From an uncultured Gammaproteobacteria bacterium (GTDB lineage: Bacteria > Pseudomonadota > Gammaproteobacteria > PS1 > Pseudothioglobaceae): a stretch of DNA of 64,000 nucleotides. Position 1 is the first letter of the stretch; each line of letters opens with the position of its first letter. Below the pieces are notes generated by a model. The model had not been told where the DNA came from and did not search any database. It saw only the letters and a list, made by a program, of their open reading frames with translations. Shown piece by piece: positions 39 to 17,852 of this stretch. Location: assembly GCA_902511025.1 (NCBI GenBank), contig CABXDP010000002.1:1466-65465 (forward strand), read 5' to 3'. Made by a program: the position numbers and the translations under genes.

Positions 39-2339
39 CTACATTCTAACCCTAGTCTTCTCAGGATCATAAAATGGAAATCTGACTACCTTTGCAGGTA
101 ATCGTTTTTGATGTCCATCTAATTTTCCTACCTCAACTTCAGTGCCAATCTCTGACTCTGAAATTGAAATCCTACAAAGCGCAATGTTCTTTTTAAGTAT
201 TGGCGAACGCGTTGCACTTGTAATTACTCCAATTTGTTGTTTTCCAATATACACACCATCTCCATGGAGTGCAACTTCGTTTCCATCTAATTCTAACCCA
301 ACCAAAACTCTTTGTGGAGAATTCTTGCGAAGAATTAAAGATTCTTTTCCAGAAAAATCATCCTCTTTAGTTATAAGAGGAACTGTAAATGAAATGCCTG
401 CTTCAAATGGATCTGTCTGGTCACAGAACTCATATCCAGCAAAGATTAATCCCGCTTCAATTCTCAGCATATCAAGCGCATTAAGGCCTAGAGGGCAAAT
501 TTCAAACTCTTCACCAGCCTCTTCAATTGTATCCCAAACTGCCTCACAATCTTTAGGGTGTGCGAACACTTCATAACCAAGCTCACCAGAATATCCAGTT
601 CTTGAGACCATGACAGGAATACCAAACTCACCTCCAATTCGCCCTATTGTGAAACGAAACCACTTAAGGTCCTCAATCGAAGTTTGCAGTTTTGGAGTCC
701 AAATAATTTTAGAGAGCGTCTCTCTACTCTTTGGACCCTGAACGGCAACATTATGAAGCTGGTCAGTCGAAGACTTGACTCGAACATCTAAACCTTTATC
801 GTCTGCGATTTTTCTAAGCAACTTGCCACCATCATCAGAGCCACCAATCCATCTAAAGTTATTGTCATCCATTCGGAAAAGTGTCCCATCATCAACCATG
901 CAGCCATTCTCATAGCACATCGCGGAGTAAACGACCTGTCCAATTGCAAGCTTGCGGACATCTTTTGTAATGGCATACTGCATCAGAGCTTCAGCGTCTT
1001 GACCGTACACTTCAAATTTTCTAAGAGGGGCAAGATCAATCATAACAACGCCTTCACGGCACTGCCAGTACTCTTTGATTGCGCCTAAATTTGTATACTC
1101 AAGGGGCAACCAATAGCCATTATAGTTATCAAAGTTTTTTGTTAATTTAGAAGTATTTTTATGAAAACCGGTTTCTTTAGTCATAGTCGGAATGGATTGA
1201 GGGTCAGGCCTAAAAGCCGTTGCCGATGAAAAATTATTGGACTTATCATAAATCCTAACATGAATATCAGTTGGATTCCAGCCGTTTGCAGAGGTTGTAT
1301 CATCTGGGCACGCTGATGAAACGCATACGAGGTCATCTACGGCCCTTAAAAGCACAAAATCTCCTGGCCTAGACCAAGAGACATCTGAGGTTAGAGAATG
1401 GCACTCTTCAATTGCTGTATTAAAAAATAGGTTAACCGCAGCCCAATTTCTTCTGGGTTTAACTCCATATTCAGCAAGAGACGAATTAAAATTATCTGTA
1501 CAGCTAATGTGTCCTGGAAAGCCGCGATCTTCATAATACTTAGCGTTGCATGCCAGACCGAAAGTGTCATGACGACAGACTGTATCCTGAATGACTTCCA
1601 CTAAGGGAATCGAATTCTGATTATAAAACTTGTCGTGGGTCCCTGGAGCAGGATAACTTGCAAGCATCTGCGAGCGAGTCACAGTAGGATCAAGGCATAG
1701 CTCCTCATTGTTATTTAAATCTTCAACTAAAAACGCCTGAAAATCTGAGCACTGCTGACCCTCTACATCAATAATTTGAATGTATTGACCCGCCTTTACT
1801 TTATAAGCAACCGCACTAGAATCTTTGACTCGAATCTCCTTAGAGGGTTTTGCTAGAGGCTCAGGTAGCCGATCAGAAGGATTTGTAGGGTTTTTCCTTT
1901 GAACGTTAATCAAAATTTCAGTGGGTGAGTTCTGCTGATCAACCTCCATTGGACCGCCCTTTGCATCAAACACACACAAGAGGTCATGATTAATATCAAA
2001 TGATTGCCTTGTATCTGCTGGACTTGAATCTTGAAATAACTCAGCAGTATCAATATCTTTTGGTTTAATTTTATTTGAATCAAGAATTGCTCTAAGCATT
2101 TCAGAGCAGTTATCTAGAGAAACTTTATTAGAGTTATTGCTAGAATTTGTCTTCCAATTTAACGAGGACAAGGCAGAAGTTTTTTTAGAATCAAAGGCAA
2201 GTACACTGCACTTTTGATCACCTTCAACATCAACTATTTCTACTGAATCGCCTTTTTTTAAATCAATTGAAATCGCTTCACCGCCATGAATCTGATAGGT
2301 TTCACAATCACCATCATATTTAATATTCGAAACTCTCAT
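39..2339 (-). CDS. tdm: Trimethylamine N-oxide demethylase (DUF1989 + GcvT aminomethyltransferase domains)
   Basis: N-terminal DUF1989-type region with Cys motifs RHDTFGLAC / HISCTDNF / SACPDD, and a C-terminal GcvT fold (SRTGYSGELGYE, LRIEAG, FYDPEKTR). This architecture is characteristic of Tdm, and the gene adjoins gmaS-mgsABC. Confidence 0.85.
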   Translation of the reverse strand: MRVSNIKYDGDCETYQIHGGEAISIDLKKGDSVEIVDVEGDQKCSVLAFDSKKTSALSSLNWKTNSSNNSNKVSLDNCSEMLRAILDSNKIKPKDIDTAELFQDSSPADTRQSFDINHDLLCVFDAKGGPMEVDQQNSPTEILINVQRKNPTNPSDRLPEPLAKPSKEIRVKDSSAVAYKVKAGQYIQIIDVEGQQCSDFQAFLVEDLNNNEELCLDPTVTRSQMLASYPAPGTHDKFYNQNSIPLVEVIQDTVCRHDTFGLACNAKYYEDRGFPGHISCTDNFNSSLAEYGVKPRRNWAAVNLFFNTAIEECHSLTSDVSWSRPGDFVLLRAVDDLVCVSSACPDDTTSANGWNPTDIHVRIYDKSNNFSSATAFRPDPQSIPTMTKETGFHKNTSKLTKNFDNYNGYWLPLEYTNLGAIKEYWQCREGVVMIDLAPLRKFEVYGQDAEALMQYAITKDVRKLAIGQVVYSAMCYENGCMVDDGTLFRMDDNNFRWIGGSDDGGKLLRKIADDKGLDVRVKSSTDQLHNVAVQGPKSRETLSKIIWTPKLQTSIEDLKWFRFTIGRIGGEFGIPVMVSRTGYSGELGYEVFAHPKDCEAVWDTIEEAGEEFEICPLGLNALDMLRIEAGLIFAGYEFCDQTDPFEAGISFTVPLITKEDDFSGKESLILRKNSPQRVLVGLELDGNEVALHGDGVYIGKQQIGVITSATRSPILKKNIALCRISISESEIGTEVEVGKLDGHQKRLPAKVVRFPFYDPEKTRVRM

Positions 2340-2440
2340 TAATTAAAAACCCCTTTTAATAATGTTTGAGTATACATAGAATTACTTAAAGATTATTTTG
2401 AATAAACTAATTCCCGTACTCAAAAGATTTTTTTAGTTTA

Positions 2441-2517
2441 TTCAGCACCTCAGGGGGTGAGGTGCCGAAAAACCAAGGAGAGAATTTATAGAGAGTGCCT
2501 CTTTAAAATCTCCCCTT
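2441..2517 (-). terminator. Two tandem stem-loops between the mgs operon and tdm; the first on the minus strand is a likely terminator
   Basis: Minus strand: AAGGGGAGATTTTAAAGAG-GCACT-CTCTATAAATTCTCTCCTT followed by GGTTTTT, then TTCGGCACCTCA-CCCCC-TGAGGTGCTGAA. Confidence 0.55.
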
Positions 2518-2535
2518 TTAATTCACTTACCCAAA

Positions 2536-2922
2536 TTAAAATTTACGGTAAGCGTTATTTAGATCAACCATTGGATGATTTTCTGACATTTGGAACTTGA
2601 TTAAAAGCTCACGCGCAATCATGTCTCTCTCTTGCTGATTATCAGGCAGTTTAATGGTGTCAGGAATCGTCACCCAGCCGTTGATGTTTCTATCAAAAAC
2701 AGCCGCTTGATCACCCTCATATCCCATATGAATATCCTCTAACCAGTTCAGATCTTTCCATCCCATTTTGTCTATATACTCCTGTAAGAAAGGGGTGATA
2801 AACTTAAGGTCAGGAACGAGATTTACGTCATATCGATAACCAATATGCTGACCAATGTCTTTTTCGCGATCAGTTCCTAGGCCATCATCTCCAACAACAA
2901 ACTCTTCTTCTTTATTGCTCAT
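2536..2922 (-). CDS. Hypothetical 128-aa acidic protein, last gene of the gmaS-mgsABC operon
   Basis: Start reassigned to the ATG at 2922 (MSNKEEEF), which follows an AGGAGA RBS just after the mgsC stop. The upstream extension in the ORF track overlaps mgsC. Confidence 0.8.
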   Translation of the reverse strand: MSNKEEEFVVGDDGLGTDREKDIGQHIGYRYDVNLVPDLKFITPFLQEYIDKMGWKDLNWLEDIHMGYEGDQAAVFDRNINGWVTIPDTIKLPDNQQERDMIARELLIKFQMSENHPMVDLNNAYRKF

Positions 2923-2936
2923 AATTTCTCCTATCC

Positions 2937-4274
2937 TTAAAAGCGTGTCAAATCTGGACGGCCAACGGTGTGCTGAGAACCTGCAATAGGGACTTGAGCA
3001 CATGCTGAGGCTTCCATCGTTAAAGCAGCAAGATCTTCTGGCTCTAGTGAGTGAATATTCGTTTTACCACAAGCACGCGCCATCATCTGGCACTCAATGG
3101 CTAAAGTATGTAAAAAGTTGTAAACTCTCTCTGAAGCTGCATCAGGGTCTAGTCTCTGTCTAAGCACTGGGTCTTGAGTTGCAACACCCACTGGGCAGCG
3201 ACCTGTATGACAGTGATAACACTCGCCCGCGTTGACGCCCATTTCATTAGGGTAATCCGCTTCAGGTATATCTCTGTTACAGTTAAGCGCCATAAGAGAA
3301 GCGTGTCCAATCGCAACCGCATCTGCACCAAGTGCGACCGCTTTAGCGACGTCACCACCATTTCTAATACCACCAGCATAGACCAGTGAAATTCTTCCTG
3401 TCATGCCAACATCATCGATTGCTCTTCTTGCTTGACGAATTGCAGCGATCCCAGGAACACCTGTCTCCTCAGTAGCGATATGAGGTCCAGCAGCTGTACC
3501 ACCTTCCATTCCATCGATATAAATACTGTCACAACCCGTTTTTGCAGCCATACGAACGTCGTCGTAGACACGAGCAGCACCCAGCTTCAATTGGATAGGA
3601 ATTTGTCCATCCGTTGCTTCACGAATCTCTTCAATTTTAAGAGCCAAATCATCTGGACCTAACCAGTCTGGGTGTCTAGCAGGCGATCTTTGGTCAATAC
3701 CCGCTGGAAGCGATCTCATCTCAGCAACCTGGTCTGTTACTTTTTGTCCCATCAAGTGTCCACCCAGCCCCACTTTACAACCCTGTCCAATAAAGAACTC
3801 AACACTGTCAGCTAGACGTAAATGCTGAGGGTTGAAGCCATAGCGTGACTGAATACACTGATAAAACCACTTACTTGAGTAGCGTCTCTCATCAGGAATC
3901 ATTCCTCCCTCACCAGAGCAAGTCGCTGTTCCAGCCATAGTTGCGCCCCGAGCCAGAGCTGTTTTAGCTTCATAACTCAGCGCTCCAAAACTCATACCGG
4001 TAATGTAAATGGGTATGTCGAGCTCTAGTGGTCTAGGTGCTTCAGGACCGATAATGGTTTTTGTTAAACACTTTTCTCTGTAGCCTTCAATAACAAAGCG
4101 CGTCAGAGTACCTGGCATAAAAGTCAAGTCGTCCCATGTTGGAATCTTTTTGAAAAGAGAGAAACCTCTCATTCGGTAACGTCCCAAATCAGATTTAATG
4201 TGGATGTCATCCATCACACCTTTAGGAAAGATAAAACTTTTACCTAGTCTGTTTTTTTCATCTATATCACTCAT
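2937..4274 (-). CDS. mgsC: N-methylglutamate synthase subunit C (FMN-binding glutamate synthase family)
   Basis: GMSFGALS, SGEGG, GIDQRSP.RHPDW, CYHCHTGRCPVGVATQDP Fe-S motif; operon with mgsA/B and gmaS. Confidence 0.85.
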   Translation of the reverse strand: MSDIDEKNRLGKSFIFPKGVMDDIHIKSDLGRYRMRGFSLFKKIPTWDDLTFMPGTLTRFVIEGYREKCLTKTIIGPEAPRPLELDIPIYITGMSFGALSYEAKTALARGATMAGTATCSGEGGMIPDERRYSSKWFYQCIQSRYGFNPQHLRLADSVEFFIGQGCKVGLGGHLMGQKVTDQVAEMRSLPAGIDQRSPARHPDWLGPDDLALKIEEIREATDGQIPIQLKLGAARVYDDVRMAAKTGCDSIYIDGMEGGTAAGPHIATEETGVPGIAAIRQARRAIDDVGMTGRISLVYAGGIRNGGDVAKAVALGADAVAIGHASLMALNCNRDIPEADYPNEMGVNAGECYHCHTGRCPVGVATQDPVLRQRLDPDAASERVYNFLHTLAIECQMMARACGKTNIHSLEPEDLAALTMEASACAQVPIAGSQHTVGRPDLTRF

Positions 4275-4307
4275 AATTTTTCCTTTATTTAATTTGTTAA
4301 AGTCCGA

Positions 4308-5150
4308 TTAAAGAATAAGTTTTTTCTCTGCAGGCTCAAGATTATCGTAGTTCCATAGTGTCTTACCAGAAACATACTTTTGCATCTTTTCTACGCCATT
4401 TGGAGCTTTCATATCATAATTACCAAGCTTTTCAGTTAAGTAGCGTACGTCTAGCTCTGTCATCTCACCAGGAACACAGTCCACTCCAAGCTCTTCAACT
4501 TCACCGCCCACATAGATCGTGCCGTCATACATTGAATCACCTAAGTTCATACCTGCATCTCCAAGCACAATCATTCGACCACGCTGCATCATAAAGCCTG
4601 AGAAAGCGCCCGTTTTACCACCAACAATAATGGTTCCGCCTTTTTGGTCAATACCTGTTCGAGCACCAACACTCCCTTTACATACGAGGTCTCCACCACG
4701 AATTGCAGCACCAAACGTTGAACCGGCATTACCATCAATAACGACCGTTCCAGCCATCATGTTTTCAGCGCATGACCAGCCTACTCGTCCCTTGATATGA
4801 ACATTAGGCCCATCAATCAGGCCACAACCAAAGTAACCTAAGCTGTCTGAAAAAGTTAAATTAAGACGATTCAAAATACCTACGCCAACACCATGCCTTG
4901 ACATTGGATTGTCAACGGTAATATTACCGATACCGCTTTCCATTAATGCTCTGATCTCACGATTAATTTCTCTTGGCGTCATATCTAAAGCATCAATCGT
5001 AGCGCTCTTGTTAGTGTCTACTTCAAACGAATGAAAATATGTCAGGTTTGCACTTTCATCAATCGAGAAAAATTTCTGCTGCGTTCTTCCTTTGAGCTGC
5101 TCCTGATGGAGCCCCATCTCATAAGACGAATCTTTTTTTAGTTCTGCCAT
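4308..5150 (-). CDS. mgsB: N-methylglutamate synthase subunit B (GXGXG beta-helix domain)
   Basis: Repeated GxxGxxxG motifs (AENMMAGTVVIDGNAG, GFMMQRGRMIVLGDAG); lies between mgsA and mgsC. Confidence 0.85.
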   Translation of the reverse strand: MAELKKDSSYEMGLHQEQLKGRTQQKFFSIDESANLTYFHSFEVDTNKSATIDALDMTPREINREIRALMESGIGNITVDNPMSRHGVGVGILNRLNLTFSDSLGYFGCGLIDGPNVHIKGRVGWSCAENMMAGTVVIDGNAGSTFGAAIRGGDLVCKGSVGARTGIDQKGGTIIVGGKTGAFSGFMMQRGRMIVLGDAGMNLGDSMYDGTIYVGGEVEELGVDCVPGEMTELDVRYLTEKLGNYDMKAPNGVEKMQKYVSGKTLWNYDNLEPAEKKLIL

Positions 5151-6076
5151 ACTTTTACCTCTCCGTGATAAGGGTCAAATGTTTCAATTCGGTGATCAAA
5201 TAATGTCCTGATTGCGACCTCCTCTGAAGCCAAAGCAATCATATCATCACCCTCGTATACAACCATTGGTTTGGCGGCCATAACATCCTTAGCCATACCC
5301 AGTTGATCTTTTGTCGCTACTAGATATGTAAATACACCATCTAAATATTCAACAGAGTCTTTCATAGCTGACTCTAAATCTTTTCCCTGGCTCATTCTTT
5401 CTGCAATATAAACTGCTATGAGTTCTGAGTCGCAGTTCGAAGAAAAGCGATGACCTTTAAGTTCTAGTGCGCGTCTGTTGGTCCAGTAGTTCGTTAGCTG
5501 GCCGTTGTGAACTACAGCAACGTCACTAAATGGGTATGCCCAGTAAGGGTGAGCAGAACGAATATCGACATCTGACTCGGTTGCCATCCTTGTGTGACCA
5601 ATTCCATGTGTCCCATTAAATTGATTCAGTCCATACTGCTCAGAAACAACTGCAGCATCGCCAAGGTCCTTGATTAATTCGAGTGAGTTACCAATAGATA
5701 GAATCTCAACACCCTCTATGTCTTCAACGAAGTCAGCTAACTTTTTCATATCGCCTGAGAATTGAATCTCATAGCGATGCGAGTACTCAGTCGCGCTTTC
5801 TTTCTTGACAATCTTAGCGCCCAGATCATCCATTCTAGAATTCACAGCAGCAACCCTATCTTCAATTGCCGCATGTATATCAAAACTTCCCTCAAGATCA
5901 GCTGCCTCAGCGACCTTGAACCTTACTACATTATTGCCATTATCTTCGCCATACATAGCGTACCCAGTTGAATCTGGCCCCCTATGCTTCAAAGCCTGCA
6001 ACATGGCTGTCATTTGCTCACCAATGTTGACATCTTTGCCGGCATTCTTATGAATAATTCCTGCTATTCCGCACAT
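5138..6076 (-). CDS. mgsA: N-methylglutamate synthase subunit A (class II glutamine amidotransferase)
   Basis: MCGIAG N-terminal nucleophile, HRGPDSTG, GHTRMATES, VHNGQL, DSE. Confidence 0.85.
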   Translation of the reverse strand: MCGIAGIIHKNAGKDVNIGEQMTAMLQALKHRGPDSTGYAMYGEDNGNNVVRFKVAEAADLEGSFDIHAAIEDRVAAVNSRMDDLGAKIVKKESATEYSHRYEIQFSGDMKKLADFVEDIEGVEILSIGNSLELIKDLGDAAVVSEQYGLNQFNGTHGIGHTRMATESDVDIRSAHPYWAYPFSDVAVVHNGQLTNYWTNRRALELKGHRFSSNCDSELIAVYIAERMSQGKDLESAMKDSVEYLDGVFTYLVATKDQLGMAKDVMAAKPMVVYEGDDMIALASEEVAIRTLFDHRIETFDPYHGEVKVWQN

Positions 6077-6102
6077 AAAATAATCTCCCTTTCCCTGAAA
6101 AT

Positions 6103-6122
6103 TGCCCGCCGTTAGGCGGGCA
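6103..6122 (-). terminator. Intercistronic GC-rich hairpin between gmaS and mgsA (mRNA stabiliser or partial terminator)
   Basis: TGCCCGCC-gtta-GGCGGGCA perfect 8-bp stem; only a short T-run follows on the minus strand. Confidence 0.5.
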
Positions 6123-6149
6123 CTCTAAATTAACTTAAACGAAACTAGC

Positions 6150-7628
6150 CTAAGGCAAGCAGTCCAAATAAGTTTCAATATCCCAATCTGTAACCGTGTG
6201 ATTGAAACGCTCCCACTCATCAGTCTTGTAATGGTGGTAAACCTTATACATCTCATCTGGCATAGCCGATTTGATGACCTCATCATTTGCAAGCTCAGTC
6301 ATTGCATCACCAAGCGACATGGGTAACTTCTTAACATCTTTACCAGCCTCCATCGCTTCGTAAATGTTTCTCTCTTCAGCTTCACCTGCATCGATATTGT
6401 TATCAATTCCATCACCCATCGCTTTTAATAGAGCGGATCCCATTAGGTATGGATTAACCATAGAGTCTACAGAGCGATACTCAAAGCGGCCTGGAGCCGA
6501 AACGCGAAGCGCACAAGTTCTATTTTGGTAACCCCAGTCAGCAAAGATTGGAGCCCAAAAACCTGTATCCCATAATCTTCTGTATGAGTTCACTGTTGAA
6601 GAACCAATAGATGTCAGTGCTGGTAAATGCTTAATCACACCGCCGATTGAATTCAGACCAATTGGACCCGGCATTTTTTCATCAATGGATGGATCCGGCA
6701 TGAATGTATTTTCACCACCCTCTTTATAAGTAAAGACACCTGGCATTCCAGGCAGCTCTCCATCGCCTGTAGCAATTTCTGGATGAAAAACATCTTTACC
6801 ACCCTTCCACAAAGACATGTTATGGTGACAGCCCGAAGCCGAAACGCCCATAAATGGTTTACTCATAAAGCAAGCAATCAATCCAAACTCACGAGCAACC
6901 TGAGCACAAATTTGACGATAAGTCGTTAAACGATCCGCGTTCCTTAGAACGTCGTCGAACTGAGTATTAAGCTCTAACTGGCCCGGTGCATCTTCGTGGT
7001 CGCCCTGAATAATATCCAGACCCATCTGCTCAGAGTACTCAATAACCTTCATGAAAACTGGACGAAGCTCTTCAAATTGATCGATATGGTAACAGTTCGG
7101 CTTTGTTACTCCGCCATTTGTACCGCCATCTTCACCACGCTTAAGCCACATCATTTCGGGCTCAGTACCGCAGCGCATATCTAGACCATACTGGTCTTGG
7201 AATTCTTTGTGCAGTCTGTAGAGATTTCCTCTGCAATCAGAGGTTAATGCTGCGCCCGGGTTATCGCGCTCTTCACGGTTTCTGTAAAGTCTACAAAAAA
7301 CCCTAGCAACTCTCTTGTCCCATGGAAGTTGGCAGAACGTATCTGGGTCAGGGATACCGACCAGTTCTGATGATTCTGGACCATAACCGATGTAGCTTCC
7401 GTGGCGATCAACGAATAAGTTTGCTGTTGAGCCATAAACCAATTGAAATCCTTTCTCAGCTAATCTTTCCCAGTGTCGAGCAGGAATACCTTTTCCTACA
7501 ATACGACCGGTAACTGATACAAATTGATAATATACATATGTAACTCCTAAAGCATCGATTTTAGCTTTTACTTCTTTTACAAGTTTATCGCGTCCAGGTT
7601 CATTAACGTGTTGTTCTAAATCTGTCAT
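6150..7628 (-). CDS. gmaS: Gamma-glutamylmethylamide synthetase (glutamine synthetase family)
   Basis: GS fold (GTEPE, DHEDAPGQLE, FMSKPF, SGCHHNMS, NRTCALR, EYRSVD) with KPNCY and FWAP (Trp in place of the GS Glu flap) as in GmaS; first gene of the mgsABC operon. Confidence 0.8.
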   Translation of the reverse strand: MTDLEQHVNEPGRDKLVKEVKAKIDALGVTYVYYQFVSVTGRIVGKGIPARHWERLAEKGFQLVYGSTANLFVDRHGSYIGYGPESSELVGIPDPDTFCQLPWDKRVARVFCRLYRNREERDNPGAALTSDCRGNLYRLHKEFQDQYGLDMRCGTEPEMMWLKRGEDGGTNGGVTKPNCYHIDQFEELRPVFMKVIEYSEQMGLDIIQGDHEDAPGQLELNTQFDDVLRNADRLTTYRQICAQVAREFGLIACFMSKPFMGVSASGCHHNMSLWKGGKDVFHPEIATGDGELPGMPGVFTYKEGGENTFMPDPSIDEKMPGPIGLNSIGGVIKHLPALTSIGSSTVNSYRRLWDTGFWAPIFADWGYQNRTCALRVSAPGRFEYRSVDSMVNPYLMGSALLKAMGDGIDNNIDAGEAEERNIYEAMEAGKDVKKLPMSLGDAMTELANDEVIKSAMPDEMYKVYHHYKTDEWERFNHTVTDWDIETYLDCLP

Positions 7629-7815
7629 TTAATCTCTCCGAAAAAATAAAAAAAATCTTTTTAAGATTTGCCCCCTAGTAGACTTTATTTAGATTCGTAA
7701 TTAATTAACCCAAATAAAAACCAGACAATTCACTGATATATAACTGATAAATACCTCCAAACATGATTCAATTTTATGACCCTAAAAAAGTAGGGTTTCA
7801 GCAAATTAATATCGG

Positions 7816-7845
7816 AGTATACTCCTATTGATATTCCATTGTCAA
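7816..7845 (-). promoter_or_regulatory. Sigma70-type promoter for the gmaS-mgs operon
   Basis: Minus strand TTGACA-N18-TATACT, about 190 nt upstream of the gmaS start. Confidence 0.55.
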
Positions 7846-7992
7846 GAAATTTTTTTTATTTTAAAGAAATTAAATAAAGCCTTGATTTTCTTCTATTTTT
7901 TGTCAAAAAACAAAAAAAAAAAAACTGGAAAGTTTTTATCTTTAGGAAGATTTTTTTTGACTATAAATCGACTAGATAGTTAATGATTTCTA

Positions 7993-8643
7993 TCAATCAG
8001 ATGCATTAGAAGAGATAATCGTCAGAAACTGGCACTCATCACTGATGATCTTTTTTGGGCCATGCGGAGTGTCAGAATCAAAATACAGCGAGTCCCCTTT
8101 TTTGAAGTGGTAGACCTTGTTCCCATAAAAATAATCCATCTGCCCCTTGAGCATGTAGATGAACTCTACTCCCTTATGCTGAAATTCAGGAAACTCATAG
8201 TCTCTTGACGTTATTGTAATTAAACACGGCTCAACCTTTAAAGATCCACCAACCGTATGCCCTAATAATTGATAGTGTCGACTCTCATCTGAGCCTGCTC
8301 TCTCTATCGTTAATCCTTTACCTGACTTGATGAAAGTCGGCTCAACATCTTTATCATGCTGCTTAAATAAGGAGGTGATAGAGATATTGAGCGCGTGACA
8401 GATCGACTGTATTGTTTTAAGTGATGCACTAATCTGGCCGTTCTCTATTTTTGAGAGCATACTGGCTGAGAGTAGCGACTGTTTTGATAGCTGCTGAAGA
8501 GTAACGCCAGCATTCTTTCTTGCCATACGCACCTGCTTGCCTATAGAGGCCTCTAACTGCTTATCACTTCCAAAGCTTGGAAGATTTTTATTGATAATGG
8601 AAACGCCCTTCTCTTTAGGCATTGGTTTTTTTGTAGCTGCCAC
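7993..8643 (-). CDS. XRE-family transcriptional regulator with C-terminal cupin domain
   Basis: HTH_3 (TLQQLS..SASMLSKIENGQISASL) plus cupin (FQHKGVEFIYML..GDSLYFDSDTPH); upstream of gmaS. Confidence 0.9.
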   Translation of the reverse strand: MAATKKPMPKEKGVSIINKNLPSFGSDKQLEASIGKQVRMARKNAGVTLQQLSKQSLLSASMLSKIENGQISASLKTIQSICHALNISITSLFKQHDKDVEPTFIKSGKGLTIERAGSDESRHYQLLGHTVGGSLKVEPCLITITSRDYEFPEFQHKGVEFIYMLKGQMDYFYGNKVYHFKKGDSLYFDSDTPHGPKKIISDECQFLTIISSNASD

Positions 8644-8653
8644 AATACAATAA

Positions 8654-8688
8654 TTTACTTAGAATAAAAAAAATTATACTACAAGGAA
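8654..8688. promoter_or_regulatory. Putative tandem operator (TTMCT-N3-AGGAA) upstream of the XRE regulator
   Basis: tttacttagaataaaaaaaattatactacaaggaa aligns without gaps to the amt upstream site at 16541-16575. Confidence 0.45.
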
Positions 8689-8735
8689 AATTACTAGATT
8701 GAAGAATTGAACATTAACGAATGAGAAATATTGAA

Positions 8736-9752
8736 TTAAACTCTCAAGCGTCTACTTCTTCTCTGCTTAATGGGCTTGGAATCGTCGCCCTGAAAGATTA
8801 ATTTTGATCCCTCAGACATAAAACCAACCCTGTCTTCAATTTCTTGGAGTGTTGGCGGCGGCGAAACACTATGCCGATCCATTGCTTTTCGCATAGCCCT
8901 GACATGATCAAAACTGGTTCCGCAACAACCCCCAATAATCTTGGCGCCAGAGTTCATGGCAATCTGCACATACCGCGACATGAGCTCTTCTGTTCCTGAG
9001 TACATAATACTGCCATTCACAAACTCTGGAATGCCGCAGTTGGCTTTTGAAATGACAATCGTTCCAGGGTCAACATTTTTTGAAATATCATTAATGGTTG
9101 CCAACAGATCTGGCGCTCCAATTCCGCAGTTAGCTCCAAACCCACTCAGATTTAAATCCTTAGATCTTTTGGCAAGGTTGGAGGGGGTAATACCCATCAT
9201 CGTTTTTCCTGCAGTATCAAAACTCATTGTTGCGCAGACTGGAAGCCCAATATCCTTGACCGCTTCCATTGCAGCTTCTAACTCTTCCATAGCGTACATG
9301 GTCTCAAGCCAGAGCACATCAACGCCTCCCTCTGCAAGACCCTCCGCTTGAGCTTTAAAGGCATCCGCTGCCTCCTTCGGAGTCATCAGCCCATGAGGCT
9401 CAATCATCTCACCTGTAGGTCCCATTGCTCCTGCAACAATGACCTGTCTGTCAGCCTGATCCGCTACCTCTCTGGCAATCTGTCCTGCTGCTTTGTTGAG
9501 TTCAAAAACCCTCGTTTCAAGATTATGTAATTTGAGTCTGAAAGATGTACCACCAAAACTATTGGTTAAGAATAAATCAGATCCAGCATCAACAAACCCT
9601 TGATGTAAAGCGCGTATTCGATCTTTGTGATCTACATTCCATGGCTCCGGAGGATCACCAGTCTCGAGACCCATCCCAAACAAGTTCGTTCCAGTTGCCC
9701 CATCAGCCAGAATGTGGCTTTTTTCCTCAAGGATTTTTAAAAAATTATTCAT
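8736..9752 (-). CDS. bmt: Betaine-homocysteine S-methyltransferase / homocysteine S-methyltransferase domain protein
   Basis: LADGATGTNLF, TNSFGG, GANCG, IIGGCCGT Zn motifs; stand-alone domain with a basic RRSRR tail. Confidence 0.8.
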   Translation of the reverse strand: MNNFLKILEEKSHILADGATGTNLFGMGLETGDPPEPWNVDHKDRIRALHQGFVDAGSDLFLTNSFGGTSFRLKLHNLETRVFELNKAAGQIAREVADQADRQVIVAGAMGPTGEMIEPHGLMTPKEAADAFKAQAEGLAEGGVDVLWLETMYAMEELEAAMEAVKDIGLPVCATMSFDTAGKTMMGITPSNLAKRSKDLNLSGFGANCGIGAPDLLATINDISKNVDPGTIVISKANCGIPEFVNGSIMYSGTEELMSRYVQIAMNSGAKIIGGCCGTSFDHVRAMRKAMDRHSVSPPPTLQEIEDRVGFMSEGSKLIFQGDDSKPIKQRRSRRLRV

Positions 9753-14034: not shown

Positions 14035-14826
14035 ATGAGCAGTTTAAAAGAAGATTACGAAAAGAATGGTTTTTATTCGCCGATCTCTGTCATCGATACA
14101 TCTCTTGCACGAGAGTATCGTAACATCCTTGAGAAAACTGAATCAAACATTGAGTTACTAAACTATCGCTACAAGATTCATACTGCGCTTGATTTCGCTT
14201 ACCAACTAGCAATCAATGAAAATCTCTTGGATAAGATTGAGTCTCTCATAGGACCCAACATTCTGCTTTATAACACTTCATTTGTCATCAAGGAGCCGCA
14301 CTCTAAAACACACATCAGTTGGCATCAAGATTTGACCTATTGGGGTTTTAACGCCGAGAAACAGGTGGCTGCTTGGGTCGCCCTGTCTGATGCAACTGAG
14401 GAGAATGGGTGCATGCACATGATTCCTGGAAGCCACAAAAATGGAAAAATTCCTCATAGAACTACGGTTGACATACACAACCTTCTTCATCATGGCCAAA
14501 CGATTGAAAATGTCTCTGAAAGTGATTCGGTAAGCGTCCCATTAAAGGCTGGAGAGGCCTCTCTTCATCACGGCTGGACAATGCACACCTCGTACCCAAA
14601 TGAAAGCAGTAATCGAAGAATTGGATTAACCATAAATTACATTTCTACGGACATGTATCAGACTCAAACTGATAATGACTCAGCCATGCTAGTGAGGGGT
14701 GTTGATGAATATAAGCATTTTGCAATGGACGAGCCTCCGACCCAGGAGTTTGATGAGGCTGCCTGGATTAAGTTACAACAAAAAGAGGCGCTCATTCATC
14801 AAACTTACAACAAAATGAAAACATAA
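14035..14826 (+). CDS. Phytanoyl-CoA dioxygenase (PhyH) family Fe(II)/2-oxoglutarate dioxygenase
   Basis: SWHQD..W, ENGCMHMIPGSH, H.S.PN.S..RR motifs. Confidence 0.9.
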   Translation: MSSLKEDYEKNGFYSPISVIDTSLAREYRNILEKTESNIELLNYRYKIHTALDFAYQLAINENLLDKIESLIGPNILLYNTSFVIKEPHSKTHISWHQDLTYWGFNAEKQVAAWVALSDATEENGCMHMIPGSHKNGKIPHRTTVDIHNLLHHGQTIENVSESDSVSVPLKAGEASLHHGWTMHTSYPNESSNRRIGLTINYISTDMYQTQTDNDSAMLVRGVDEYKHFAMDEPPTQEFDEAAWIKLQQKEALIHQTYNKMKT

Positions 14827-14840
14827 CAATCTCATTCAAC

Positions 14841-14882
14841 AAAAAAAGGGCAGTATTTACATACCGCCCTTTTCGTTTTTTT
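14841..14882. terminator. Bidirectional rho-independent terminator
   Basis: A7-GGGCAGTAT-ttac-ATACCGCCC-TTTT between convergent genes. Confidence 0.8.
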
Positions 14883-14897
14883 ACTTTTTACAGATTT

Positions 14898-15077
14898 TTA
14901 CTTGTAGTGATCCTGCTCGTCAGAGTTGCCTTTAACTAAGACTCCTACTAACATTACCGTAGCAATCACTGTCCACCAGCCAGCGGCTGATGAACCAGCA
15001 CCGATATACATGCCCATGTCCATCCAAGCACCATCAGCATCCATAAGCTCTGTAAAAGATTCAGCAAAATATCCCAT
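14898..15077 (-). CDS. Unannotated 59-aa single-pass membrane protein co-transcribed with amt
   Basis: MGYFAESFTELMDADGAWMDMGMYIGAGSSAAGWWTVIATVMLVGVLVKGNSDEQDHYK*; AAGGAG RBS; starts 18 nt after the amt stop and ends just before the terminator. Confidence 0.8.
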   Translation of the reverse strand: MGYFAESFTELMDADGAWMDMGMYIGAGSSAAGWWTVIATVMLVGVLVKGNSDEQDHYK

Positions 15078-15095
15078 ATTAATTCTCCTTAAAAA

Positions 15096-16499
15096 TTAAG
15101 ATTCAGATTCAGGGCTCGCCATACCTTGAGGGTATGCCTGTGCAGGAACTTTCACTGCATCAAGTCCTCTTTCTTGAACTGCGTCTGGGATACGTAACAT
15201 GCCAGCTTTGTTCACTATCCAAGACACAATGTATCCTGGAACAAAACCTAGTAAGAACATGACAACTGCACCGACAATTTGGCCAAATAGGCTAATTGCA
15301 ACAGTATCTTCTGGAGCAAAAGCGCCAAGTCCTGGAACACCAGAACCCAGAATACCAAGCATTACAACGCCAAATAGTCCAATCGTTCCGTGAACCGTAA
15401 CACAACCAACAGCATCATCGATACCAAGACCCTCTAGCCAGTCCGCACACGGCTTAAGAATAATACCAGCAAGGATAGAAACAGCTATAACCGTTGAACC
15501 AAAGTACACATCAAGACCCGAGGCTACAGAAATAATACCTGCTAGACAGCCAGACATCATCCAGAAAGGATCTCTAGTCATAACCCAAGCACCAATAATA
15601 CCGCCAGCAGCAGCTAGAGGAACGTTAAATGCTAGTGCCGAAAGTGTCATTGGAGTACCATAAATGGTAGTCGCTCTGTCACTATACCAACTCCAACCTT
15701 CTCCAGGCAGAATGATACAAGCCATTAGGAATCCGAAGAATCCAACAATAATCAGCATTAAGCCAGTTACTGTAAGTGGCATGTTGTGACCTGCCAGATG
15801 ATTCGCAGAGCCGTCAGCGTTGAATTTTCCTACACGTGGGCCCAAGTTCAATAGAACACCCAGCGCGAAGAATCCAGCGACAGCGTGCACAAGACCAGCA
15901 GCACCAAAGTCGTGATAACCAAACTCAGTGACTAACCATCCGTCAGCGTGCCATCCCCATGCCGCTGCAATACCCCATGCGGCGGTACCTAGCACAACCG
16001 CACAGATTACAAAACCTACGGTTTGTATTCTCTCGATTAGTGCACCAGAGGCAATCGACGCAGTTGTTGCCGCGAATAGAGCAAAAGCACCCCAGAATAC
16101 GCCTGACGCATTGTCACCCATATTTGGTCCCATGTACTGAGCAGAATCGCCCCAGGCCCATGCGATAGCATTTGCATACTCTAGACCTGATATCTCCATA
16201 TAGCCGGCACCAGCACTAAAGTCTAATGGCCAAGTTGGCAGGGCAAAGTAGAACCACCAACCAAATAGGTACCATGCAGCAATTGTAAACGCGAACGCGA
16301 GTAAATTTTTAACACCCGATGACAGTACATTCTGCAAGCGAGTAGCACCCATCTCATAGAGAAGGAAGCCAGCATGAATGAGAACCATCAAAGGAATTGT
16401 TACGTAATAGTACGCCTCAGCAAACATCCTGTTTGTGACCTCGGCAGCACCTTTTATAGCGGCTACTTCAGCCGTTAAAGCTAATATTTGATCTTCCAA
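15096..16499 (-). CDS. amt: Amt/Mep/Rh-family transporter, atypical (possible methylammonium transporter)
   Basis: SGALIERI, YHDFGAAGLVH, LGPRVGKF, IDDAVGCVTVHG (twin His retained); TTG start after AAGGAG. Confidence 0.9.
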   Translation of the reverse strand: MEDQILALTAEVAAIKGAAEVTNRMFAEAYYYVTIPLMVLIHAGFLLYEMGATRLQNVLSSGVKNLLAFAFTIAAWYLFGWWFYFALPTWPLDFSAGAGYMEISGLEYANAIAWAWGDSAQYMGPNMGDNASGVFWGAFALFAATTASIASGALIERIQTVGFVICAVVLGTAAWGIAAAWGWHADGWLVTEFGYHDFGAAGLVHAVAGFFALGVLLNLGPRVGKFNADGSANHLAGHNMPLTVTGLMLIIVGFFGFLMACIILPGEGWSWYSDRATTIYGTPMTLSALAFNVPLAAAGGIIGAWVMTRDPFWMMSGCLAGIISVASGLDVYFGSTVIAVSILAGIILKPCADWLEGLGIDDAVGCVTVHGTIGLFGVVMLGILGSGVPGLGAFAPEDTVAISLFGQIVGAVVMFLLGFVPGYIVSWIVNKAGMLRIPDAVQERGLDAVKVPAQAYPQGMASPESES

Positions 16500-16540
16500 A
16501 ACATTATCTCCTTTTTTAGTTTAATCAATCTCTCTCCGTT

Positions 16541-16575
16541 TTTACTTGTAGGAAATTTTATATCCCTACAAGGAA
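16541..16575. promoter_or_regulatory. Tandem pseudo-palindromic operator upstream of amt
   Basis: TTACT-TGT-AGGAA (16542-16554) and TCCCT-ACA-AGGAA (16563-16575), each one mismatch from TTCCT-N3-AGGAA, with starts 21 bp apart. Confidence 0.55.
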
Positions 16576-16746
16576 CGAGTATATAGAAAGTAGTTCATCA
16601 AATCTATAAAAATTATCTTTAAATTGGTTAAAAAATAGAAACTTTATAAAGATATGTATGAAAGAACAACTGGTAATCAAAATATAAAAAATCAAATATT
16701 TTTTATACTAGATTTCAAATTGAACGGTATTGATAAAAATTCTTAT

Positions 16747-17319
16747 TTAACTGCCATACAGATCGACTATGCTGATGACTTGTCGCTTAAAGTCATCCTC
16801 GTAATGCTCTGCAAATTCCTCAAGCGTTGTTAGTGAACTCGAGTCTGACATTCGATCGGTATAGATGAGTCCATCGAGATGGTCGAGCTCATGCTGAAAG
16901 GTTCCAGCGCTGATTCCTTTGGAAGTAAAGCTGAGCTTTTTGCCTTTACGGTCAAGTGCCTCAATTAAGATTTCAGGACAGCGATCGACCTTGCCTCTCA
17001 TATTGGGGACTGAAAGGCATCCTTCAAAGACGTTGATTCTGTCTTTAGTTAGAAAGTTGACTTTTGGATTAATTAAAACAGTTAATGGAATGTCTGGTTT
17101 GTAGGGGTAGCGAGGGTTTTTTTTCACTTCAATCACGCAGATTCTTTTATGAACAGCGATTTGAGTTGCCGCAAGGCCGGCGCCATTAGCATCCCTCATA
17201 GTCTCAATAAGGTCATCGATGAGTGTTTGAATCTCAGCAGAATGAATTGCATCACTATCAACGGTTTCTGCCACTTGACGAAGCGCTGGGTTTCCAATGT
17301 GAACGATTTTTCTAATCAT
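16747..17319 (-). CDS. def: Peptide deformylase (not linked to fmt, probably a paralog)
   Basis: GAGLAATQI, EGCLS, QHELDH motifs. Confidence 0.95.
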   Translation of the reverse strand: MIRKIVHIGNPALRQVAETVDSDAIHSAEIQTLIDDLIETMRDANGAGLAATQIAVHKRICVIEVKKNPRYPYKPDIPLTVLINPKVNFLTKDRINVFEGCLSVPNMRGKVDRCPEILIEALDRKGKKLSFTSKGISAGTFQHELDHLDGLIYTDRMSDSSSLTTLEEFAEHYEDDFKRQVISIVDLYGS

Positions 17320-17350
17320 AGCTTTAGAGAACTGATCCTATGTAAGGGAT

Positions 17351-17482
17351 CTAAATAAAATTTACAACAAGAATTAAAAGCAGCAACAAGCTTGCGACCC
17401 AAAACAATTGATAAGCCTTGCTCATAATGCCGCGAATATCTCTCAGCTCTCTAATAATTTTATCTACCTGATCATCGTTCAT
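17351..17482 (-). CDS. Unannotated 43-aa protein with C-terminal transmembrane helix
   Basis: MNDDQVDKIIRELRDIRGIMSKAYQLFWVASLLLLLILVVNFI*; AAGGA RBS; fills the gap between two same-strand genes. Confidence 0.65.
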   Translation of the reverse strand: MNDDQVDKIIRELRDIRGIMSKAYQLFWVASLLLLLILVVNFI

Positions 17483-17507: not shown

Positions 17508-17852
17508 TTAATAGGGGCAATTTTTACAACCATTATTGCAGCATTCGCCCTGCTTTACGAGGTACCATTTACTGAAAACATAAAGTCCGTTGTCAACAGT
17601 ATAGTCTACGTTTTTAATTAGTTTCGTTTGGGAGCGGTATGGCTCAACAAATTTCTGAAAGCTCTCCATGCCCTTTTCCTCCACTAAAAAATCTATCCGA
17701 TCATTGATTGCTAATCCAAGGCAGGATGGACAAAAGCAGTCCTCTTCAAGAGTTGGAGACATTACTGGAGGAAAGACCATGCACCAGCAGCTTCCAGTTC
17801 CAGCACCACATCCAAATTCCTGATCACATTTTGAGCAATTCTTAGCTGTCAT
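17508..17852 (-). CDS. Cysteine-rich CWC-family / DUF5522-like fusion protein
   Basis: CSKC..FGC...SCWC and CFCPSCL at the N-terminus; YVF..WYL...GECCNNGCKNCPY at the C-terminus. Confidence 0.75.
   Translation of the reverse strand: MTAKNCSKCDQEFGCGAGTGSCWCMVFPPVMSPTLEEDCFCPSCLGLAINDRIDFLVEEKGMESFQKFVEPYRSQTKLIKNVDYTVDNGLYVFSKWYLVKQGECCNNGCKNCPY

Follow-up and report, generated by a model that had tools for sequence, protein, structure and literature searches.

Organization of the amt locus

The stretch analysed here (hereafter the window) comprises 64,000 nucleotides of contig CABXDP010000002.1 (assembly GCA_902511025.1, positions 1,466 to 65,465) from an uncultured gammaproteobacterium of the Pseudothioglobaceae, and the subject of the analysis is a small open reading frame (ORF) located immediately behind a gene for a divergent Amt channel, considered as a candidate auxiliary subunit of that channel. 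The amt gene (15096..16499, minus strand) encodes 467 amino acids (aa) from a TTG start and is preceded by its own AAGGAG at 16508-16513, 8 nt upstream. As read from the sequence, the small ORF (14898..15077 including the stop codon, minus strand) begins with an ATG at 15075-15077, 18 nt from the amt stop, and encodes 59 aa; its AAGGAG ribosome-binding site (RBS; 15085-15090, minus strand) is situated 5 nt past the amt stop and 7 nt upstream of the ATG. An intrinsic terminator on the minus strand (14838-14877; a G+C hairpin followed by U7, -20.5 kcal/mol, z = -5.8 relative to shuffled sequences) begins 20 nt beyond the small-ORF stop codon and is predicted to close the amt-small transcript. 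The hairpin is common to a convergent gene of the PhyH family (2-oxoglutarate-oxygenase-type; 14035..14826, plus strand). A simple pattern scan for sigma-70 promoters and terminators returned nothing useful and overlooked this terminator, whilst an Rfam scan of 14700-17400 retrieved no family, the weak matches at 14840-14960 being a reflection of the hairpin.

The N-terminal part of the 59-aa protein (residues 1-32) is acidic and aromatic, with a net charge of -5, and contains the motif YIGAGS at residues 24-29. A single transmembrane (TM) helix spans residues ~30-48, inclusive of GWWTVIATVMLVGVLV (residues 33-48), and the best 19-residue window has a mean hydropathy of 1.87. The protein terminates in the short charged tail KGNSDEQDHYK, with the pattern G50-N51-x2-E54-x3-Y58-K59. 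A first-pass annotation made from the DNA alone had placed this ORF between amt and the shared terminator with the correct coordinates and RBS, and each of the features that it described (YIGAGS, the helix, an N-terminus rich in acidic and aromatic residues, and the charged tail) proved accurate.

Homologues, architecture and selection

The small protein utilized as a single query retrieved 58 homologue clusters with identities of 63-98%, and a profile search extended these to at least 329 clusters. All named homologues are entered as "hypothetical protein" and none carries a Pfam domain; copies from cultured roseobacters are present in RefSeq, such as WP_160321395.1 of Roseovarius atlanticus, confirmed by exact look-up. 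The gene is hence uncharacterized rather than unannotated, and the earlier description of it as "hidden" does not hold, as RefSeq and other sources already carry the ORF. Searches of Pfam, NCBIfam and a protein atlas with the small protein and 22 relatives produced sub-threshold noise only.

Three longer sequences encountered in these searches were rejected. Two long repeat proteins in the first profile (P0064 and P0073) were chance matches to an unrelated repeat, and P0105, a 426-aa entry in one 90% cluster, has no relation to the small protein and was apparently mis-clustered. The only longer form found, P0242 (201 aa, from one JGI contig), has the usual N-terminal part, helix and HESEA tail, followed by an Ala/Lys-rich linker and a C-terminal domain of ~65 residues (ISGVGPKLEKTLNKLGFWHFHQIASW...).

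An alignment of 78 sequences yielded the consensus MGFPxxxxxWxxVxGAMFMGxGxxxPGxxTxIAxxxCxxxLxxGxxxExxKY, in which Glu54 (window numbering) is invariant and Trp18, Gly26 and Gly50 are at least 90% conserved, with a mean column identity of 38%. A length of less than 100 aa with a single TM helix is an architecture common to more than 100 relatives. The median net charge is -3 for the N-terminal part and +2 for the tail, and the tail was the more positive of the two in all of 90 sequences. Because this bias follows the positive-inside rule, we infer a periplasmic N-terminus and a cytoplasmic C-terminus.

The ratio of nonsynonymous to synonymous substitution rates (dN/dS; Nei-Gojobori, 420 pairs) was 0.37 pooled for the small gene, compared with 0.14 for amt, and fell below 1 in 25 of 28 disjoint pairs, which is the purifying selection that the first-pass annotation had asked after. 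The frame has been retained open in more than 100 loci, from the AT-rich genomes of the Thioglobaceae to those of Alphaproteobacteria. In addition, contigs assembled from RNA (metatranscriptome) libraries of several studies span the small ORF and its junction with amt (for example 14878-15654), consistent with co-transcription of the two genes. Single runs left parts of the region uncovered (X1 at 14922-15043, for example), and one X1 contig skips 14893-15045; contigs of this kind can reveal neither absence nor transcript ends. From these sequence comparisons the small ORF is judged to be a real gene under selection.

Strict co-occurrence with one Amt clade

Among 122 genomes of the order to which the window belongs, the small ORF was present in 37, all of them carriers of the 467-aa Amt. 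The other genomes have, at best, a canonical Amt (~407 aa, 30-33% identity), with the exception of G001, which harbours a 43%-identical Amt with a divergent partner ORF of its own. The small ORF was located directly behind the Amt in 15 of 15 fetched loci of the order, and its product drops to ~40% identity where the Amt is still 74-76% identical.

Outside the order, the same Amt clade was identified at no fewer than 575 loci in a species-level genome collection, mostly in Rhodobacteraceae and also in Hyphomicrobiales, Rhodospirillales and Granulosicoccaceae. Loci fetched from these other taxa contained an ORF of 50-64 aa with an AGGAG-type site, 10-49 nt past the Amt stop, in 77 of 80 cases, and in the remaining three the contig ended after the Amt. 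In a random sample of 401 Pseudomonadota genomes, the small-protein profile matched three, each time directly behind a clade Amt. The Amt query matched 11 genomes of this sample, ten of them foreign (38-66% identity), and all ten encode a single-helix ORF of 54-77 aa starting 3-85 nt after the Amt, including two further divergent partner types beyond the reach of the profile.

A mechanical control asked for any ORF of 45-90 aa that begins 1-75 nt past the stop codon and has a Shine-Dalgarno-like site and a hydrophobic 19-residue window. Such an ORF was found behind 67 of 71 clade Amts, compared with 1 of the 299 remaining genes (250 aa or longer) at these loci, where the relatedness of the loci means that a Fisher p-value overstates the case. 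No such ORF was detected behind the canonical, glnK-linked Amt of the congeners.

The pairing remains constant while the other neighbours change (sucAB in Thioglobaceae; dmm/mgs, mgd, tdm or eutBC elsewhere) and spans two bacterial classes, down to 38% Amt identity, the clade Amts with a comparable downstream ORF covering a range of 38-98%. No copy of the small gene away from a clade Amt was found in the searches conducted, that of the 401-genome sample included. On the loci compared, the small ORF co-occurs strictly with one divergent Amt clade; the search behind homologous amt genes, proposed in the first-pass annotation, returned a comparable ORF in every clade locus with downstream sequence available.

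As a separate observation, the clade Amt of the gammaproteobacterial Thioglobaceae is 65-72% identical to that of the alphaproteobacterial Rhodobacteraceae, as against 30-33% to the second Amt of its own genus, a distribution suggesting that amt and the small gene have been transferred together from one class to another.

The partner Amt

The window Amt matches the family PF00909 (8e-51) and scores below the cut-offs of both TIGR00836 (amt; 178.9 bits, cut-off 343.3) and TIGR03644 (marine subtype; 150.1 bits, cut-off 514). Its structural model (predicted local distance difference test score, pLDDT, 84.9; predicted template modelling score, pTM, 0.87) adopts the 11-helix Amt fold, with a target-normalized TM-score of 0.84 to solved Amts. 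The model has an additional N-terminal helix and two clade-specific periplasmic loops (87-129 and 261-285), together with a long loop 5 on the cytoplasmic side (220-239); its C-terminal region (432-467) ends ~35 residues beyond TM11 with no further domain.

The twin histidines (H205/H370), the Phe gate (F142/F257), the vestibule tryptophan (W181) and the conserved aspartate (D197) are all kept and are invariant in 78 clade sequences. Where canonical Amts have WFGFN(A/G)GS at the pore entry, the motif reads FFGFLMAC here (residues 254-261, window ~15717-15740), with F254, F257, L258, M259 and C261 invariant in the same 78 members and the vestibule serine replaced by Cys261. From this change of motif, it may be speculated that the external binding site is more hydrophobic, perhaps suited to methylated substrates.

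In profile searches the nearest solved structures were those of Sd-Amt1 (8qj3/8qpf, E 3e-37) and Ks-Amt5 (6eu6, 1e-32), with E. coli AmtB at 1e-14; by profile and fold together, Sd-Amt1 and Ks-Amt5 outrank Af-Amt1 and E. coli AmtB. Sd-Amt1 has an internal N1/N2 cation site, in which Glu29, Asn45, Thr104 and Ser107 are the N1 ligands and Asp48 the N2 ligand, and where Lys44 switches and Tyr119 flips (Pfluger et al. 2024; PMC11152129). The N1 ligands align with Glu49, Asn65, Ser148 (a Thr to Ser change) and Ser151, Lys44 with Lys64 and Tyr119 with Phe163, all of these being invariant in the 78 sequences. The N2 ligand is lacking, as Asp48 aligns with an invariant Ala68.

The clade Amt has Sd-Amt1 and Ks-Amt5 as its best-matching structures and shares with them a long loop 5, the N1 ligands and the lysine that switches (PMC11152129, PMC5764959). 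It differs in the alanine at N2, the FGFLMAC motif, the two added periplasmic loops and the N-terminal helix, and in being without the fused histidine-kinase or HAMP-GGDEF module; where those proteins have a fused output domain, the clade Amt has a separately encoded helix.

Predicted complex of the Amt and the small protein

Structure prediction was conducted with paired 78-row alignments for one Amt protomer and one copy of the small protein. The interface score ipSAE was 0.72, 0.63 and 0.77 in three runs, with a best control of 0.00; the runs shared at least 69% of contacts, and the partner had a pLDDT of at least 73. Among solved complexes, 58 of 80 attained this mark, as did 2 of 110 mismatched pairs, counts that are rough here, given the custom alignments. 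The first-pass annotation had proposed modelling with the Amt trimer; the prediction, run with one protomer, backs 1:1 binding. We know of no comparable complex, hence it seems unlikely that the prediction passed by memory.

In the predicted complex, residues 36-47 of the partner helix contact TM2 (71, 74-75, 78) and the start of TM4 (164-165) of the Amt. Residues G50, N51, E54, H57 and Y58 of the tail contact both the turn between TM3 and TM4 (159-162) and residues 434-450 of the C-terminal region, whilst residues 18-33 contact the periplasmic loop at 116-128. These contacts agree with the topology deduced from charge and with where the Amt model places its helix boundaries. The predicted location of the small protein is thus within the membrane, alongside TM2 and TM4, and it does not plug the cytoplasmic pore exit.

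Association with methylated-amine catabolism

Across 81 loci, a GCV_T gene (DmmD-like) was directly downstream of the pair in 46, genes for DmmA, DmmB and DmmC were present in 30-32, and an upstream, divergent trio of the mgsA/B/C type (GATase_6/GXGXG/Glu_synthase, N-methylglutamate synthase) in 32-33, with dmmDABC and mgsABC flanking the pair in ~40%. Distant clade members adjoin dmmBC, mgd/mgs-type genes, tdm or, in one genome, eutBC. In this last, gammaproteobacterial locus (L144, G364:C1:3391500-3406500, ~4496-8520), the ethanolamine ammonia-lyase genes eutB and eutC are immediately followed by those of a clade Amt (49-52% identical) and its 54-aa partner, and an AraC-type regulator is encoded upstream; this suggests that the clade serves other small amines besides methylamines. 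The gene neighbourhoods tie the clade, so far as such evidence goes, to small-amine catabolism. All of the flanking pathways release ammonia, and the clade Amt may import an amine, import ammonium or let ammonia out.

Maps of roseobacter methylated-amine clusters have previously included an amtB or amt gene, named in the legends of Lidbury et al. 2017 (PMC5520151) and Zecher et al. 2020 (PMC7574528). The roseobacter clade Amts are located between mgsABC and dmmDABC, which is the position of that amtB, hence the mapped gene probably belongs to this clade. Text searches of both articles retrieved amtB only from figure legends, as an ammonia/ammonium transporter, and no reference to the small gene behind it.

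Within the window, Pfam assignments on the minus strand identified a Tdm-type trimethylamine N-oxide demethylase (39-2339), a Glu_synthase/GXGXG/GATase_6 trio resembling N-methylglutamate synthase (mgsCBA-like, 2937-6076), a gmaS candidate resembling glutamine synthetase (492 aa, 6150-7628), an XRE-cupin regulator (7993-8643) and a homocysteine S-methyltransferase (8736-9752). This methylated-amine and one-carbon block (39-9752) is situated 5-15 kb from the amt-small pair, the part at 39..7628 being ~7.5 kb away. The Amt had at first been termed "methylamine-type", and the methylamine link in that term is supported by gene neighbourhood: dmm and mgs genes elsewhere, and tdm, mgs-like and gmaS-like genes in the window. 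The GXGXG protein of the window is 35-36% identical to roseobacter MgsB and a second copy in the genome (G000:C5) is 57-59% identical; the window trio may be a paralogue with a different substrate. No DmmA-like genes were found in the window's genome, which is 65.8% complete, or in four complete congeners, and in this lineage the pair is therefore not tied to dimethylamine monooxygenase.

Several further features surround the amt gene. An 8-bp inverted repeat (CTTGTAGG ... CCTACAAG, 13-nt spacer) at window ~16544-16576, ~45 nt upstream of the amt start within an AT-rich intergenic region of 247 nt, could be an operator. In relatives a SET-domain gene is located between def and amt, and the window has no SET-domain gene there. 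Between a GATase gene and def, 17508-17852 (minus strand) encodes a 114-aa cysteine-rich protein with a DUF5522 match and a weak Cys_rich_CWC match, which is kept at the same position in relatives.

Proposed role and alternative explanations

We estimate a probability of roughly 60% that the small protein is a single-pass inner-membrane protein that serves as a dedicated auxiliary subunit of one distinct Amt clade. Binding to the Amt is supported by the strict co-occurrence and the complex prediction, from which, together with the charge pattern, we infer topology, binding, binding site and functional effect. The Amt and the small protein would share one transcript, and each Amt protomer would bind one copy of the small protein. 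The helix of the latter would pack on TM2 and the beginning of TM4, its N-terminal segment, aromatic and acidic, would rest on the clade-specific periplasmic loop (Amt 116-128), and its short tail, with Glu54 and Tyr58, would clamp both the turn between TM3 and TM4 (159-165) and residues 434-450 in the Amt C-terminal region. This predicted surface would lie next to the residues that make up the internal N1 cation site of the solved sensor-type Amts; a constitutive structural or tuning subunit, which would stabilize the complex or set gating or selectivity, is therefore more likely than a GlnK-like nitrogen-status switch. The Amt so served would act in the catabolism of methylated amines (in some relatives, ethanolamine), either in amine or ammonium uptake or as an outlet for released ammonia. 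The earlier proposal of an undescribed accessory protein for a special Amt subfamily consequently stands insofar as a conserved, dedicated companion is concerned, whilst the part of it that invoked a GlnK-like switch is unlikely.

Several points weigh against such a subunit. The small protein evolves ~2.5 times faster than the Amt and has only one invariant residue. Adjacency among related genomes is not independent, and a co-transcribed gene whose product does not bind would show the same pattern; the RNA-library contigs may reflect DNA carry-over and say nothing on translation. A search for fused Amt-small forms longer than 112 aa found none, although this is weak evidence. Furthermore, TM1-TM3 contribute to the trimer interface in AmtB structures, and because a monomer was modelled, the predicted helix site could be a surface that is filled by the neighbouring protomer in the real trimer. 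The helix may occupy a groove at the rim of the trimer interface, or the site may be an artefact.

A more far-reaching reading, which we regard as unlikely, is that the Amt and its partner form a two-piece ammonium/amine transceptor, in which Glu54 reads the occupancy of the N1 site, as a new form of Amt control replacing PII in methylated-amine catabolism. By analogy with Lys44 and Tyr119 of Sd-Amt1, a cation at N1 would free Lys64 and move Phe163, and the helix would be an in-trans gating or signalling element coupling occupancy to the C-terminal region.

Also unlikely is that the Amt is mainly a receptor, in the manner of Sd-Amt1 and Ks-Amt5, with the small protein as an in-trans transducer of N1 occupancy to a further cytoplasmic or membrane partner. 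The profile and fold rankings (3e-37 and 1e-32 versus 1e-14 for AmtB) are in keeping with a receptor, as are the long loop 5, the alignment of four of four N1 ligands and of both moving residues with invariant positions, and the predicted placement of the invariant Glu54 at the Amt 159-163 turn. However, the N2 ligand is replaced by Ala68, no output domain is either fused to the Amt or encoded nearby, the small protein offers only a very short tail, and the pair is located in catabolic operons and not beside regulators. Transporting plant AMT1 proteins fall in the same cluster as Sd-Amt1 (PMC11152129), therefore the N1 residues do not decide between transporter and sensor; moreover, sensor Amts discriminate against methylammonium (PMC11152129).

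The small protein might alternatively be a co-transcribed membrane peptide that does not bind the Amt, for instance a membrane-stress or assembly factor, held in place by operon structure. Its poor conservation and the inherited linkage among related genomes would fit such a peptide, for which we see only a small chance: the pairing outlasts a change of all other neighbours and holds over two classes to 38% Amt identity, and no copy was found away from a clade Amt.

The first-pass annotation had ranked the small protein as a candidate Amt partner in place of GlnK, and a small protein that switches the Amt by nitrogen status instead of a missing PII is improbable indeed. PII proteins are soluble, of ~112 aa, with the PF00543 fold and a T-loop. 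GlnK, a soluble trimeric PII, is a sensor of ATP, ADP and 2-oxoglutarate whose T-loop blocks the exit of the pore (PMC10710835). The 59-aa protein does not match PF00543, consists of one hydrophobic helix with ~11 cytoplasmic residues, and lacks a nucleotide- or 2-oxoglutarate-sensing domain; the tight translational arrangement with amt suggests synthesis along with the Amt, not signal-driven recruitment. It resembles GlnK in its genetic coupling to amt and in its predicted contacts on the Amt cytoplasmic face and C-terminal region, the latter being a regulatory part in other systems, where control proceeds through the C-terminal region and loop 5 (PMC5764959). The gene order is, however, reversed, as glnK usually precedes amtB whereas the small gene follows amt, and the glnK-amtB pair of this lineage exists separately from the amt-small pair.

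No PII gene was found in the window's genome at its 65.8% completeness, and only 1 of 127 clade-Amt loci had one in its flanks, the latter count being in favour of a GlnK substitute. All five complete relatives searched nonetheless encode one or two PII genes, including one (G034) with a clade Amt that is 99% identical, and in four of the five a PII gene is directly beside the second, canonical ~407-aa Amt. Because complete congeners carry PII genes, mostly beside a canonical Amt, the lineage has retained GlnK, and the clade Amt is an extra, PII-unlinked paralogue. The absence of glnK noted in the first pass accordingly describes the locus and the incomplete genome, and "in place of GlnK" fails at the level of the lineage. 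Two of the glnK-amtB pairs, G034:C1:1378972-1380528 (L043) and G018:C1:415647-417203 (L044), encode a 404-aa Amt with the FGFN motif and have no small ORF behind amtB; both genomes encode a second PII gene elsewhere.

A chance reading frame or untranslated 3' region, as the shortness of the ORF and its lack of family annotation might suggest, is refuted as far as sequence analysis reaches by a frame open in more than 100 loci, a conserved RBS, a dN/dS well below 1 and a conserved architecture.

Comparison with small transporter partners and implications

Small proteins that act on transporters have been described previously, including AcrZ with AcrB, MgtS with MgtA and PitA, SgrT with PtsG and WatS1 with WatABO (reviewed in PMC10710835). 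The protein described here is similar to AcrZ, MgtS, SgrT and WatS1 in having fewer than 100 aa and one helix and in being proposed to bind and to tune or stabilize the membrane domain of a transporter, and its predicted position along the outside of the transporter helices is reminiscent of AcrZ. It differs from all four in having no sequence relationship to them, in its conserved periplasmic segment of ~30 residues and in the identity of the partner, an Amt channel. Compared with AcrZ and MgtS, the small gene is located inside the transporter's own operon and co-occurs with it strictly 1:1, which is more subunit-like.

The Amt-family regulators listed in the review are PII-family proteins only (PMC10710835). 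Literature searches on a small protein behind amt, SPO1578, Amt-type methylamine transporters and Amt accessory subunits retrieved no description of the gene, nor was any report found of a membrane-embedded Amt subunit. Small helix partners of transporters are thus known as a kind; this one is new for the Amt family and as a sequence family.

The Amt/Mep/Rh channels are among the best-studied membrane proteins, and a single-helix subunit dedicated to an entire Amt clade would, if true, add a new component to that picture. The clade is common in abundant marine bacteria, namely the roseobacters and the heterotrophic SUP05/PS1 Thioglobaceae, and the pair is found in clusters that degrade trimethylamine N-oxide, dimethylamine and methylamine, compounds of importance to marine nitrogen cycling. 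Should the pair be the missing importer of methylamine or dimethylamine, or an outlet for ammonia, these pathways would gain an entry or exit route, and heterologous tests of the Amt without its partner might fail or mislead. Finally, the likeness of the clade to the sensor Amts means that the partner offers a handle on the use of the internal cation site; of the possible outcomes, a role in reading that site would be the one of greatest interest.

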